Part shown: in pieces, positions 1,053 to 4,990 of the stretch
How the letters are laid out: the number at the start of each line of letters is the position of its first letter
Position numbering within the stretch: position 1 is the stretch's first letter
IMG/VR virus record: IMGVR_UViG_2617270978_000007
From: a virus
Taxonomy: Duplodnaviria; Heunggongvirae; Uroviricota; Caudoviricetes
Length of the DNA stretch: 6,937 nt
Reading direction: 5' to 3' (one strand)
Notes under the pieces: generated by a model
The model's database searches: none
What the model saw: only the letters and a program-made list of their open reading frames with translations
Told to the model about the DNA's origin: nothing
Translations under genes and position numbers: made by a program

Positions 1053-1273
1053 GCCACACCTCCCAGACGCTTAAACATTTTTCCGGAGCAAAAGGCTATA
1101 AGCGGCATACTGATGCGGTAATTACGGCCCAGCGGTTCACAAATCACCTTCTGACATTCACGGTCAACCAGGCTGACACGTAGAACATGCCCTGCAGGCG
1201 TGGTGTACCACTGACCAGGACGAGGACAACGGAAAGTCTGATTGGTAAACCGTTTGAAAATATTCCGGATCAT
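1049..1273 (-). CDS. Hypothetical small protein (74 aa), Cys-containing
   Basis: ORF-track ORF; ATG at 1273..1271 overlaps the Rha ORF stop (ATGA). A purine-rich SD-like stretch lies upstream. Function unknown. Confidence 0.5.
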   Translation of the reverse strand: MIRNIFKRFTNQTFRCPRPGQWYTTPAGHVLRVSLVDRECQKVICEPLGRNYRISMPLIAFCSGKMFKRLGGVA

Positions 1274-2418
1274 TTGCGCCCCCTTACCTCTGAAGGGTTC
1301 AGCGACAAATTTATGAGACTGGCCAGTAGCGCCGCGTCGTTGATGCGGTCATACAGACTTACAGCCAGCGGGGATTCGGCTTTTGCCAACATGGGATAAA
1401 GCTGCTGCAGCCAGACCTGATGAATTGATGAAATGTAGGAATAGAGAACGCTGGCGTTATGTGCAACGTCGCTCAGTACAGAGGGATTTGAAAGCTGTTT
1501 CTCCATCTGGTTAAAGGCATTGATGTATGCCTCTTTGAACTGGGCAGCACGTTTACCCGTGAAACCCATAGCAAGAAACGCAAAGCCGTCGCGGGTTATT
1601 TGATAGCAAGGTAGTTTGCGGCCTGTGCAATCGGTGTAATCACTCACCGAAAAATTGCGGGAAGTGAATGATGCAGAGCATTCAAGCGTGCGGATCTTTT
1701 TCAGTACATCGTCATGACGTTTGGAGAAGAAGTTGGCAACAGCCAGGGATGAAGTAACAGCCTGACCATCAACGATGGCAATTTCAGGTTGAGTGAGGGT
1801 TGGGATCGTAGCCATGATGGCAGCCTCCGTTGACTGTGGAAAACTTCCACCACCGGAGCTGCGAAACTCACTGGTGGCAGACTGAACAGGGTTCGCAGTA
1901 CCGGCGTCAACGGAGACCGGCGAGCCTTTCGGCTCCCCTGCCCAGCCCACCATAATTCTGGCGTGCGTGAGCGCGGACGATAAAAAAGACGCTGGCGCGT
2001 CATATATCGCCGTTGACAATTCCGGGCTGCGACCCCCGGCACCCGCTTTATAAGGTGCCTGAGCAGTGTAACGTCCCGGAATTGCAGAATCAATATGCTG
2101 GTGGTCCTTCACACTCAACAAAATCACGCCTGAATTTCCACAAAGGACTAAAGCACTCATGCGGGTAGTCTTTGCGAAGATAGATAACGCGCTGTGTTTC
2201 TGGCTCCCAACGAATAACATGGACATAAAGCCCTCTTCCGTCACGAAACCAGCGGTTAAGTTCCTGCACAACTCGCCCCCCACAGTCAGGTAAAGTTCTC
2301 TGTGGTTACTTACAGCCAGGTGATTTGGTAATCTGCATTCATGCCGTAACAACAGGTGTTCAGCGACGCTGACCACCAGCTGTTGCGACAAACGGTTATT
2401 TGCCGTTAAACTATTCAT
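1270..2418 (-). CDS. Rha-family phage regulatory protein (382-aa ORF; the Rha domain is the C-terminal 181 aa, with an alternative internal start at 1815)
   Basis: The C-terminal half (MATIPTLTQPEIAIVDGQAVTSSLAVANFFSKRHDDVLKKIRTLE...) carries the F-x-KRH-D-x-VL-x-x-IR signature of Phage_pRha proteins. An internal ATG at 1815..1813 is preceded by GGAGG at 1824..1828. The full ORF starts at an ATG at 2418..2416 that overlaps the upstream stop (ATGA), and its N-terminal ~200 aa are low-complexity (Ala/Gly/Ser-rich) with no recognised domain. Boundaries are uncertain between 1270..1815 and 1270..2418. Confidence 0.55.
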   Translation of the reverse strand: MNSLTANNRLSQQLVVSVAEHLLLRHECRLPNHLAVSNHRELYLTVGGELCRNLTAGFVTEEGFMSMLFVGSQKHSALSIFAKTTRMSALVLCGNSGVILLSVKDHQHIDSAIPGRYTAQAPYKAGAGGRSPELSTAIYDAPASFLSSALTHARIMVGWAGEPKGSPVSVDAGTANPVQSATSEFRSSGGGSFPQSTEAAIMATIPTLTQPEIAIVDGQAVTSSLAVANFFSKRHDDVLKKIRTLECSASFTSRNFSVSDYTDCTGRKLPCYQITRDGFAFLAMGFTGKRAAQFKEAYINAFNQMEKQLSNPSVLSDVAHNASVLYSYISSIHQVWLQQLYPMLAKAESPLAVSLYDRINDAALLASLINLSLNPSEVRGRK

Positions 2419-2972
2419 GCGTTAGTTTCTCCACAACCAGAAGCAATCGACGCCACGACGCCCGGAGCTGCACACTCGCGGGCGTTACTATTTTCTGGAG
2501 CGCAGAAGATTTTGTAGACCAGTGCTGCATGCTCCTGGAGCTTCGAAATTGAGAGGTACAGCTCGTCGTTAATTGCTGTCTTCTCATGCGGTTCCACTAC
2601 ACCGTCTTCGATTGCTGAACGAATCTGTCTGGAATAACTGCCGATCTGTTCAATGACTTCCAGCAGACGCTGGTTAATATCGGCGTTGTCCACATCCTCG
2701 ACGTCAGGAAGAGACACAAAGACGCCATTTGCAGACTGCGCCACAGCGTCAGCAATGAAGTGAGTTCCACCAGCACGTTGTAAAATCATTGCCCATCCCA
2801 GCGGGAAAATCTGATCGCCATCGGCACGAAGGCGATTGAATAAAGCGTTCTCTGTTACATCCAGCCAGTCAGCGGCTTCAGCGTAACCCCCCGGCAACGC
2901 CGCGATAGTTTTTCTGACAGCTTTCACGTACCACTCAGGCTGTTTTTCTATTTTCCAGTGATGCTTACCCAC
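2415..2972 (-). CDS. CII-like / YdaT-family early regulatory protein (putative)
   Basis: ORF in the position of cII, immediately downstream of cro. Preferred start is GTG at 2972..2970 with AAGGAG SD 6 nt upstream; the ORF-track ATG at 3077 would overlap cro and has no SD. Family assignment is from recalled resemblance and gene order only. Confidence 0.6.
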   Translation of the reverse strand: MGKHHWKIEKQPEWYVKAVRKTIAALPGGYAEAADWLDVTENALFNRLRADGDQIFPLGWAMILQRAGGTHFIADAVAQSANGVFVSLPDVEDVDNADINQRLLEVIEQIGSYSRQIRSAIEDGVVEPHEKTAINDELYLSISKLQEHAALVYKIFCAPENSNARECAAPGVVASIASGCGETNA

Positions 2973-2994
2973 GGCTATCTCCTTAAAACTGTGG

Positions 2995-3243
2995 TTACTT
3001 TTCATCTGATGAATCTTTAATCTTTTGAAAAATATCTGGACGTAATTTTTCTTTTGATATGCCAGTGGTCTTTTCAATGAATATCGAAAGCTTTGCAGGG
3101 GGACGCTTTTCTCTGTTCAACCAGTTCCAGACATGTTGTTGCTTTACTAAATGACCGCTGCTGGCTGTGAGCTTCCGAGCCAATTCTGATTGACCACCAG
3201 CCAGAGCGATTGCCTCCGATAAGGCTAATTGCTCAGGTGTCAT
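2995..3243 (-). CDS. Cro-like HTH transcriptional regulator (YdaS-like)
   Basis: 82-aa ORF divergent from the repressor. ATG at 3243..3241 with AAGGAG SD 6 nt upstream. N-terminal HTH-like segment (LSEAIALAGGQSELARKLTASSGHL). Size and position match Cro. Confidence 0.75.
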   Translation of the reverse strand: MTPEQLALSEAIALAGGQSELARKLTASSGHLVKQQHVWNWLNREKRPPAKLSIFIEKTTGISKEKLRPDIFQKIKDSSDEK

Positions 3244-3378: not shown

Positions 3379-4065
3379 GTGAAAACACTGGCAGAACGAT
3401 TAAAGATAGGTAGAGAGAAAGCTGGCATGAGCCAAGCTCAACTAGCTGAAAAAATTGGACTTTCACAACAATCTGTAGCCAAAATAGAGAATGGCGAAAC
3501 TCTACAACCGCGCAAAATTAAAGAAATTGCAAAAGTTTTAGGTGTATCACAAAAGTGGTTACAACTTGGTATTGAAGACAACGCATCCATACCTGATCTT
3601 GTTGTAAAAGAAGCAGAAAGCACCGCATTAGACCCCGATATTTTCGTAAACATTCCTGTTTTAGATGTCGAGTTATCGGCAGGTAACGGATGTCTGGCTG
3701 AAATAGTTGAATCAGCTATTGACTGGTTTCCGTTAAGAAGAGCAGATTTGAGAAAATCTGGCGTATGTGCATCTAATGCCAAGATCGTACAAATATGGGG
3801 GAACAGTTTATTACCGGTTCTCAATAATGGAGATCTTGTTGCCGTTGATATTTCTCAAACCGTTCCTATTCGTGATGGCGATCTTTATGCCGTACGAGAT
3901 GGTGTATTGCTAAGGGTTAAAATACTTATCAACTTACCTGACGGTGGCTTGATTCTTAGAAGCTTCAACAAAGATGAGTACCCAGATGAAATACTCACCT
4001 TTGAAGATAGACGAGCCAGAATTCATGTTATAGGTAGGGTATTCTGGTCATCGCGAACTTGGTAA
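3379..4065 (+). CDS. CI-like prophage repressor (XRE-type HTH N-terminal domain + LexA/S24 peptidase-like autocleavage domain)
   Basis: 228-aa ORF, GTG start at 3379 with GAGGGA SD-like sequence 7 nt upstream. N-terminal HTH (MSQAQLAEKIGLSQQSVAKIENGE). An Ala-Gly candidate cleavage site (LSAGNG), a GNSLLP segment with the candidate catalytic Ser and a downstream Lys (LLRVKIL) match the Ser/Lys dyad arrangement of LexA and lambda CI. Confidence 0.9.
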   Translation: MKTLAERLKIGREKAGMSQAQLAEKIGLSQQSVAKIENGETLQPRKIKEIAKVLGVSQKWLQLGIEDNASIPDLVVKEAESTALDPDIFVNIPVLDVELSAGNGCLAEIVESAIDWFPLRRADLRKSGVCASNAKIVQIWGNSLLPVLNNGDLVAVDISQTVPIRDGDLYAVRDGVLLRVKILINLPDGGLILRSFNKDEYPDEILTFEDRRARIHVIGRVFWSSRTW

Positions 4066-4938
4066 TGCATCGAAAAGCATTTCTTCAGAAATAATTTTAA
4101 GTTTTGCACCATTATCATCCCTATAAGATATAGCCTTTTCGATCTTCCTTCCGTGACTAGAGAATTTCCAATCACGGGAGGAAAGCGTCCCAATTACTAA
4201 AAAATCCAACTTTTGAGTAATTCCACTACTGATGTTCCCACCAGCATTTTTAATCAAATTTTCAACTACGGCTCTCTTTCCTGCAACAAAAGTGCCTGTA
4301 AGACAATAGGTTTTACCCTCTAACTCTATCGAAGCCCCTACATCAATAGGCAGCCTGGTCGCCAAACCATCCACCACCCCACTTTCCAAGTCACATCCTG
4401 TGAAGTCTACTAATGCCTTATGTAGAGTTAAACTCTCATCTTCAGTAATAACACCATCTTTAAGAATTTCCTTTACAAGTGCATAAAGTTTTTTTCCTGG
4501 GTAGTTGTTCTTCAAAGCTCCATTTTGCTCAAGCCACCAATTAAGATATCTTATTTCTTCTTGAGTTAAGTTCCGATCAGCAATTAATCCTTTACATAGT
4601 CCATTAAGTAAATGGACATCTACATCCTTGGAGTAAAAATCAATTTCAGGGATATCAAGAATTTCCCTCTGTATTTGGAGAAGGCTATTTTTAAGGTCAT
4701 CACGTTCTTCTGATGTGATTATTCCATCCGCAAGAATATCCGACACCCGAGCAGATAGACTTTTTATAACTCCATTATTGATAATCTGCTTTGCTTCAAG
4801 TAACCATGTATCTAAGTAAAGAACCTCCTCTTCACGGACAACTCCATCTGCAATGATTCCATCAATGATGCTAATCAAGTTAGCAAATAACTTGTCCCGG
4901 TTCTGTGTGTAATTAAAAGCGTAAAGCGCGTCTTCCAT
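4048..4938 (-). CDS. TerB-like repeat protein with C-terminal BRCT domain (296 aa); accessory (moron) gene
   Basis: ATG at 4938..4936 with GGAGG at 4943..4947 (MEDALYAFNYTQNRD...); the ORF-track start at 4968 lacks an SD. Four ~35-aa repeats carry the motif (I/L)ADG-x-(I/V)-x-x-EE (IADGVVREEE, LADGIITSEE, IADRNLTQEE, LKDGVITEDE), resembling TerB-type domains. The C-terminal ~85 aa (GKTYCLTGTFVAGKRAVVENLIKNAGGNISSGITQKLDFLVIGTLSS...AKLKIISEEMLFDAL) match the BRCT pattern of NAD-ligase C-termini. The stop at 4048..4050 overlaps the repressor 3' end by 18 bp. Confidence 0.8.
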   Translation of the reverse strand: MEDALYAFNYTQNRDKLFANLISIIDGIIADGVVREEEVLYLDTWLLEAKQIINNGVIKSLSARVSDILADGIITSEERDDLKNSLLQIQREILDIPEIDFYSKDVDVHLLNGLCKGLIADRNLTQEEIRYLNWWLEQNGALKNNYPGKKLYALVKEILKDGVITEDESLTLHKALVDFTGCDLESGVVDGLATRLPIDVGASIELEGKTYCLTGTFVAGKRAVVENLIKNAGGNISSGITQKLDFLVIGTLSSRDWKFSSHGRKIEKAISYRDDNGAKLKIISEEMLFDALPSSR

Positions 4939-4990
4939 ACAACCTCCTTTTTTTGATAATCCTTGCACTCCTTGGCTACTCGTTCAAACC

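Follow-up and report, generated by a model that had tools for sequence, protein, structure and literature searches.

Here, we analysed a 6,937-nucleotide (nt) stretch of DNA from a virus of the class Caudoviricetes (IMG/VR record IMGVR_UViG_2617270978_000007), hereafter the window, focusing on positions 1816-2418, which lie directly upstream of a gene for a Rha-family regulator. The window is identical to a prophage of Escherichia coli strain EC2 (NZ_CP058571.1, L001), for which RefSeq gives a single 382-amino-acid (aa) 'Rha family' protein at this locus and annotates neither of the two RNAs described below. Region 1816-2418 probably controls a Rha gene of the antirepressor type, and the E. 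coli prophage is lambdoid (SfV/mEp460/e14-like). In the initial annotation, the roughly 200 in-frame codons upstream of the Rha domain were left as a fused N-terminal extension, a separate lost gene or a non-coding gap. The last of these does not agree with the content of the region, which holds a DUF4222 gene and the RNA genes IsrK and C4. The features of the locus are listed here.

2415..3077, minus strand: ymfL, encoding a CII/CP76-like regulator (Pfam PF06892, 51.5 bits; 'protein YmfL' in RefSeq)
1270..2418, minus strand: long open frame of 382 codons (from the list of open reading frames; PGAP annotation WP_001530587.1, 'Rha family phage regulatory protein')
2090..2269, minus strand: intact DUF4222 gene of 59 aa with a GTG start (Pfam PF13973, 51.1 bits against a cut-off of 27)
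2065..2093, minus strand: candidate sigma-70 promoter of isrK, equivalent to PLE of phage P4 (placed by motif positions)
1982..2058, minus strand: gene for the IsrK small RNA, 77 nt (Rfam RF01394, 58.7 bits against a gathering score of 50, E 5.7e-11)
1870..1957, minus strand: C4/CI-type antisense RNA (Rfam RF01695, clan CL00128, 78.8 bits against a gathering score of 45, E 9.9e-15)
1859..1865, minus strand: target site a2, TTCGCAG, complementary to the C4 junction a' over 7 nt
1824..1834, minus strand: target site b2, GTCAACGGAG (1834-1825), the exact complement of the C4 loop b' over 10 nt
1270..1815, minus strand: short nested product, a 181-aa Rha-family regulator and putative antirepressor (PF09669, TIGR02681)

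The match to the C4 family is full-length (model positions 1-87, at 1957..1870). The specificity loop b', which is the loop of hairpin 2, reads CTCCGTTGAC (1915-1906), the 3' junction a' is CTGCGAA (1898-1892), and the 3' end carries a CCACCA motif (1877-1872). The 5' stem contains an AUG (1953-1951) that is in frame with the Rha ATG and lies 46 codons before it, with no intervening stop. In P1 and P4, C4-type RNA is cut from a longer transcript by RNase P. IsrK, whose 5' end at 2058 was taken from the Rfam model, is the equivalent of P4 seqA and of the P1 a1/b1 element, and it carries decoy copies of both target sites: a1 in one of its loops (TCGCAG, 2032-2027), to which the C4 junction a' is also complementary, and b1 in its linker (GTCAACGG, 2017-2010), which has 8 nt in common with b2. 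It ends in an intrinsic terminator (2001-1982) that was also called independently and consists of GACGC-GCCA-GCGTC (2001-1988) followed by T6 (1987-1982). The b2 site overlaps the Shine-Dalgarno sequence GGAGG (1828-1824) of the Rha start. The order a1-b1-C4-a2-b2-start and its spacing are collinear with the P1 sites annotated in NC_005856, and the pair of IsrK and C4 was also detected by Rfam in 17 relatives, in P4 and in Gifsy-1.

The candidate promoter of isrK has a -35 element TTGATT (2093-2088, overlapping the stop codon of the DUF4222 gene), a 17-nt spacer and a -10 element TACACT (2070-2065). It is kept in the class of modules to which the window belongs, and other classes have TTGAC.-N-CTATATT-type elements at the same place.

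To follow these elements beyond the window, we carried out a pattern scan of viral contigs, in which about 120 loci yielded 127 C4 instances that were grouped into 48 clusters at 85% identity. Among these clusters, 39 different b' loops and 21 different a' junctions occur, and the target sites co-vary with them. Cognate matches of at least 7 nt were found for 85% of b2, 67% of b1, 94% of a2 and 71% of a1 sites, compared with 2-6% for non-cognate combinations (39 loop types). In terms of match length, b2 had a cognate median of 9 nt versus a non-cognate mean of 4.9 nt (39 distinct loops), and a2 had a cognate median of 7 nt versus a non-cognate mean of 4.2 nt. An exact-complement motif analysis was used in place of RNA duplex folding, in which long spurious pairings dominated (relative to shuffles, z was -2.2 for C4 against the leader and -1.5 for C4 against IsrK). 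The structure of C4 is conserved as well: RNAalifold, applied to 47 non-redundant representatives including the window, gave 27 pairs, 15 of them with compensatory changes, in agreement with the family's architecture of two hairpins closed by a long stem. One example comes from the alignment of the window with the relative L002, where the hairpin GAGCC-GAAA-GGCTC is replaced by CCAAC-TTCG-GTTGG. Judged by this pattern, these changes are signatures of RNA and are radical at the level of the peptide. The hypervariable loops, with 39 types in 48 clusters, probably define immunity types and the cross-talk between co-resident prophages.

Several additional observations were made on the leader and on the modules. 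In the minimum-free-energy fold of the leader alone (1820-1865), GCAGCUCCG next to a2 pairs with the b2/Shine-Dalgarno region CGGAGGCUGC, and the ribosome-binding site of Rha may thus be sequestered in cis as well. Tandem IsrK-C4-cargo modules, two or three in number and with differing loops, occur in L009 (1039-1883), L060, L113 (3165-3716), L015, L033, L035 and L122; L060 has three module copies about 656 nt apart. Their arrangement suggests stacked immunity switches. In L018, a related viral contig, a DicF RNA (RF00039, 61 bits) was found at 4747-4798, about 250 nt upstream of the IsrK-C4 module.

The second conspicuous property of the region is its reading frame. As described previously, an open reading frame (ORF) of 382 codons starts from an ATG at 2418 that overlaps the stop codon of the upstream gene, which we identified as ymfL: the ATG (2418-2416) and the TGA of ymfL (2417-2415) together form ATGA at 2418-2415. 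From there, this frame, which resembles eta of P4, passes through the DUF4222 gene, the candidate promoter and the two RNA genes and then follows the Rha coding sequence as far as 1270, and the frame of Rha is open for 603 nt upstream of ATG 1815. On the minus strand of 1816-2418 it contains no stop codon, versus 11 and 10 in the other two frames, and just 0.05% (5e-4) of 20,000 dinucleotide-preserving shuffles of this segment were stop-free. The openness of the long frame is therefore beyond chance, and it needs an explanation. The G+C content climbs to 0.60 across about 1800-2100. The first 200 codons had been described as rich in Ala, Gly and Ser; this applies to aa 121-201, which overlie the RNA genes (46%), and not to aa 1-120 (24%).

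The open frame is a widespread property of these modules. In all close relatives, the frame that crosses IsrK and C4 is uninterrupted and runs on into the downstream gene, which may encode Rha, a 278-aa 'ash family' ORF or an Icd-like protein, and the upstream gene varies too; Icd-like cargo is also present in other clusters, such as L010. When a frame was counted as open if it extended at least 150 nt upstream and at least 250 nt downstream of the C4 start, the long frame was open in 27 of the 48 clusters and the other frames in 0 and 1. From 150 nt upstream of C4 to the start of the cargo gene, the number of stops per frame was 0/66/126 in the 28 clusters of the long class and 68/61/56 in the 19 clusters of the short class. 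The presence of stops in the short class implies that the RNA module itself does not forbid stop codons in the long frame. Insertions and deletions preserve the frame, with distances of 135, 138 or 141 nt from ATGG to the start. In these clusters the first ATG of the long frame is always upstream of the isrK promoter, and in nine of them, including the window, it overlaps the stop codon of the preceding gene. The in-frame arrangement was also found in a Salmonella phage with 77% DNA identity.

These data bear on the simplest reading of the locus, in which there is an RNA module and nothing else: the long frame would have no effective translation, the 382-aa protein would be an artefact of annotation, and Rha would be made only from ATG 1815 or, in the manner of orf45 of Gifsy-1, from AUG 1953. 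Such a reading agrees with the lack of conservation of the long-frame peptide, with the inconsistent choice of start codons by PGAP among near-identical relatives, and with the fact that P1 and Gifsy-1 function without a long frame. The codon-usage score of the long frame across the RNA region (log-odds trained on the window's own genes) was also barely positive at 0.05; this score hardly told the frames apart and was hence not used as evidence. Against the reading of an RNA module alone stand the frame-specific lack of stops (27 of 48 clusters versus 0 and 1), the bimodal distribution of stops between the two classes together with the frame-preserving insertions and deletions, and the recurrent ATGA coupling to upstream genes that are not homologous to each other. 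P4 provides a precedent as well, since nonsense mutations in eta lead to premature termination according to a passage in PMC10111431. We consider it rather unlikely that the RNAs are the whole explanation.

Among the long-frame clusters, several (L016, L020, L047, L069, L080, L031 and L052) have the Shine-Dalgarno-proximal start after b2 shifted by one or two nt. In these clusters, the C4-regulated product is a small ORF (64-81 aa) that is out of frame with the long ORF, and the latter runs up to 1248 nt further, so that these loci represent another version of the nested arrangement.

The upstream part of the long frame overlaps the DUF4222 gene, which is read in a different frame. This gene is annotated as WP_001341559.1 in the relatives L002 and L003, and it was left out of the annotation of the identical EC2 genome because the 382-aa ORF call covers it. 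Among homologs, variable sites were distributed 19/14/44 over the three codon positions of DUF4222, an excess at the third position. Compared with phage Stx1_EH1995 (L008), identity amounts to 81% at the DNA level and to 86% in the DUF4222 reading, whereas the long-ORF reading of the same stretch is only 46% identical to Stx1_EH1995 and its Stx1-type relatives, which implies that the long-ORF peptide is not what is conserved there. Judging from these substitutions, the DUF4222 gene is under purifying selection in its own frame and is intact rather than decayed. As a control for chance openness of the +1 frame, we had intended to use DUF4222 genes located elsewhere, of which the fetched loci contained only two.

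Downstream of the RNA module, the initial annotation had pointed to an internal in-frame ATG at 1815 with its own GGAGG. Both are present: the ATG (1815-1813) sits behind GGAGG at 1828-1824, and the Rha domain PF09669 begins 20 residues later. PF09669 scored 107.7 bits on the 181-aa form (residues 21-106) and 106 bits on the 382-aa ORF (cut-off 29.9), and TIGR02681 scored 104.4 bits on the 181-aa form (residues 12-109) and 102.3 bits on the long ORF (cut-off 45.95). Alignments with Rha homologs of unrelated phages begin at residues 1-20 of the 181-aa form, and these homologs have no extension; the extension thus looks like a by-product of translation and not like a domain. The start context of the short form, GGAGGCTGCCATCATGGCTAC, is common to P4 kil. 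From the Rha start on, the RNA strand is C-rich and G-poor (1839-1593; C/G of 1.5-2.0 in 78-nt windows), a composition that would fit a Rho utilisation site such as timm of P4 kil.

The extension had also been described as having no recognisable domain. This proved incorrect, since Phage_ASH (Pfam PF10554) matches aa 117-212 of the long ORF (64.5 bits against a cut-off of 26), DUF4222 is found at 51 bits, and two Rfam families lie above their gathering scores. The Phage_ASH match coincides with the translation of IsrK, C4, a2 and b2 (window 1816-2070, minus strand). We found that PF10554 matches the in-frame translation of the RNA module alone in eight of nine diverse clusters (L010, L012, L016, L018, L047, L053, L069 and L113 are those listed), and the 'ash family protein' calls of PGAP in relatives cover the IsrK-C4-a2/b2 module. 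Since this match is a translated RNA module, membership of PF10554 says nothing about protein function, and the conservation of the family appears to be explained by RNA structure and antisense pairing rather than by a folded domain. The starts chosen by PGAP differ even among near-identical relatives, being placed at 2418, at the ATG equivalent to 2160, or in a separate 'ash family protein'. The homologous orf37 in the GenBank record of SfV (U82619.2) is labelled 'immunity region'.

These results make it highly improbable that the long ORF encodes a genuine two-domain protein, in which the N-terminal 201 residues (an 'Ash' domain) are fused to Rha and the internal start provides a second isoform, as had been suggested initially. 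The Phage_ASH score and the conserved frame would fit such a protein, and both RefSeq and the annotations of phages mEp460, F1055 and Stx1_EH1995 treat the long ORF as a single protein. However, the Ash match is made of IsrK, C4, a2 and b2 and is obtained again when the RNA module is translated by itself, the compensatory changes of RNA type scramble the peptide, residues 50-109 are an out-of-frame reading of a DUF4222 gene under purifying selection, and Rha homologs elsewhere do without the extension. In our reading, the first 201 codons of the long ORF are not a protein domain. What remains of the initial suggestion is the nested arrangement of in-frame starts, the inner one with its own Shine-Dalgarno sequence, which occurs in 27 of 48 clusters including that of P4 eta/kil; the upstream 201 codons are RNA genes and DUF4222. 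A 382-aa protein with a conserved N-terminal region in all homologs had been named initially as a refuting outcome, and it was observed in form only, with the frame being conserved and the peptide not.

Three characterised systems could be compared with this locus. The frame of the regulated gene is open upstream for 456 nt in P4 kil (this is eta), 33 nt in P1 icd, 27 nt in Gifsy-1 anrP and 603 nt for Rha in the window. By this comparison, the layout of the window is of the P4 eta/kil nested-gene type, with Rha in place of Kil, and is not that of P1 or Gifsy-1. In P4, Rfam finds the isrK/c4-a1b1 and C4 pair inside the ORF 8812..8168, whose start forms ATGA with the stop codon of ORF88 and whose terminal part is the 65-aa Kil. 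Thus, in both cases a single long frame encloses an IsrK/seqA-type element and a C4/CI RNA. This frame starts on the stop codon of the upstream gene (ORF88/alpA in P4, ymfL in the window) and crosses an internal promoter, and its last part corresponds to a shorter product, nested in it, that starts after the b2/seqC site. P4 kil and the Rha gene also have the same start context and the same first residues (…EAAIMAT…). The two loci differ in that the nested product is a 181-aa Rha-family regulator in the window versus a 65-aa Kil in P4, that the locus of the window lies in the early-right operon of a lambdoid prophage (a cro-like and a cII-like gene followed by replication genes) and not in a P4-type satellite, and that the spacer between IsrK and C4 is 24 nt in the window versus about 107 nt in P4. 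Moreover, unlike in P4, the long frame of the window overlaps a DUF4222 gene in another frame, and the window is known from sequence alone. Forti's work of 1999 is said to have shown that nonsense mutations in eta cause premature termination. According to passages in PMC10111431 that cite Forti et al. 1999 (J Bacteriol 181:5225), Kil is a truncated form, full-length Eta is translated only from the upstream promoter, and translation of eta prevents termination and escapes RNA immunity.

The RNA of P1 belongs to the same family, RF01695, and a1, b1, C4, a2, b2 and the regulated start follow one another as in the window and at similar distances. Also as in the window, b2 of P1 overlaps the ribosome-binding site, and the cargo has an antirepressor-type function. 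The immI operon of P1 and P7, with the c4 antisense RNA, icd and ant1/ant2, was reportedly characterised by Citron and Schuster in 1990 and by Biere et al. in 1992. In P1, the regulated ORF is icd, to which ant is translationally coupled, and the promoters are controlled by C1 operators. In the window, unlike in P1, Rha follows directly after b2 without an icd-type small ORF between them, and P1, unlike the window, has no long frame through c4.

The isrK-orf45-anrP-isrJ locus of Gifsy-1 has been dissected experimentally (Hershko-Shalev et al. 2016, PMC4825925). IsrK activates translation of the downstream antirepressor in trans, and orf45 is conserved in its nucleotide sequence and variable in its amino-acid sequence (PMC4825925). 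As in the window, IsrK is followed by a C4-family RNA (STnc1160, overlapping orf45) and then by an antirepressor-type gene, and orf45 begins at the AUG of the C4 5' stem, in the place that AUG 1953 takes in the window. Unlike in the window, the stop of orf45 overlaps the start of anrP (AUGA) and the frame is closed just upstream, which leaves no long frame; AnrP shows no homology to the Rha of the window (E = 2.3), and the Gifsy-1 locus lies after antQ, in the late region. The Rfam scan did not find isrJ in the window.

The orf45 stop provides a case for a recent accident, which would be either the loss of a stop codon (for example that of an orf45-like leader, as in Gifsy-1) or the remnant of a decayed upstream gene, both of which had been proposed initially: the homologous leader of Gifsy-1 ends in a stop overlapping the antirepressor start, and the window is in frame without that stop. 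We regard such an accident as hardly credible. This open frame is found again between upstream and downstream sequences that are not homologous, and it is common to many divergent clusters, to P4 and to the Salmonella phage. A restriction of the open frame to a few very recent, closely related strains is contradicted by the relatives and by the cluster data, and the DUF4222 gene is intact.

Taken with the P4 layout, the evidence points to an RNA immunity region with a bypass, and we consider it quite probable that the RNAs silence Rha in the lysogen and that translation of the long frame from upstream transcripts circumvents them, as in P4. In a lysogen, the internal promoter would make terminated IsrK and, through read-through, C4. 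The a' and b' segments of C4 would then pair with a2 and b2 of the same transcript. Since b2 covers the Shine-Dalgarno sequence of Rha, we propose that Rha would not be translated from these promoter-proximal transcripts, and the untranslated C-rich leader and early Rha RNA would then probably be terminated by Rho. Because IsrK bears the target-site copies a1 and b1, it could compete for C4 and may thereby activate expression. On transcripts from the early promoter, ribosomes would instead start at ATG 2418, in coupling with ymfL, and pass through the whole RNA module, which is feasible because the frame is open from the ymfL stop into Rha. Such translation would escape the RNA control and yield an extended Rha.

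Several points weigh against this bypass model. RNA processing, Rho termination and translation of the long frame are inferred by analogy with the characterised phages, as is the antirepressor activity of Rha. Translation of the long frame across the DUF4222 gene would mean 180 nt of dual coding, which is unusual, and in at least one relative (L102) the long frame begins only after DUF4222. Many of the 48 clusters have homologous modules in common and are not fully independent observations. The consensus scan called no promoter in 1750-2500, where the candidate fits 8 of 12 positions (threshold 9 of 12), so that its case is one of position and conservation only. In addition, RF03163 (c4-a1b1) had no match in the Rfam scan of the window; this family matched P4, Gifsy-1 and three relatives, where it overlaps the isrK matches.

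A more elaborate version of the bypass model would assign three purposes to the same DNA, namely the two RNAs, DUF4222 and a translated extension. Rha isoforms of 382 aa (from ATG 2418), 227 aa (from AUG 1953) and 181 aa would then differ in activity or stability, and the RNA-shaped 'Ash' peptide would have a role of its own in lambdoid prophages. This seems to us unlikely.

The consequences of these findings concern mainly annotation and the reach of this type of switch. The 'ash family protein' calls in relatives represent the translated sequence of an RNA immunity module. In many lambdoid prophages, including Stx-converting phages, Rha-, Ant-, Icd-type and other cargo genes would be under the control of a P4-type RNA immunity switch that has a bypass frame, whose translation we infer. 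Nothing here is new in principle, since P1, P4 and Gifsy-1 had established the parts, each component falls into a family already described and the layout has a characterised prototype; the value lies mainly in improved annotation and in the spread of the switch among lambdoid and Stx prophages.

With regard to the surroundings, the operon consists of a cro-like gene (2995-3243), ymfL, region 1816-2418 and then the downstream genes. The 5' end of ymfL is uncertain, as RefSeq annotates 558 nt. Two further ORFs had been reported initially. One of them, in another frame and overlapping the G+C-rich segment, is indeed present at 1701..2093 (130 aa); it was rejected as a gene, having no family match, and in relatives the frames other than that of the long ORF are short around C4. 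The other, the 44-aa ORF on the plus strand, exists at 2159..2293 and not at 2158..2292, and nothing supports it as a gene. Finally, a 306-aa ORF at 4048-4968 (minus strand) has a C-terminal BRCT domain (PF00533, 28.8 bits), an unusual accessory gene for that position; it is convergent with the CI-like S24 repressor gene (3379-4065) and slightly overlaps its 3' end.

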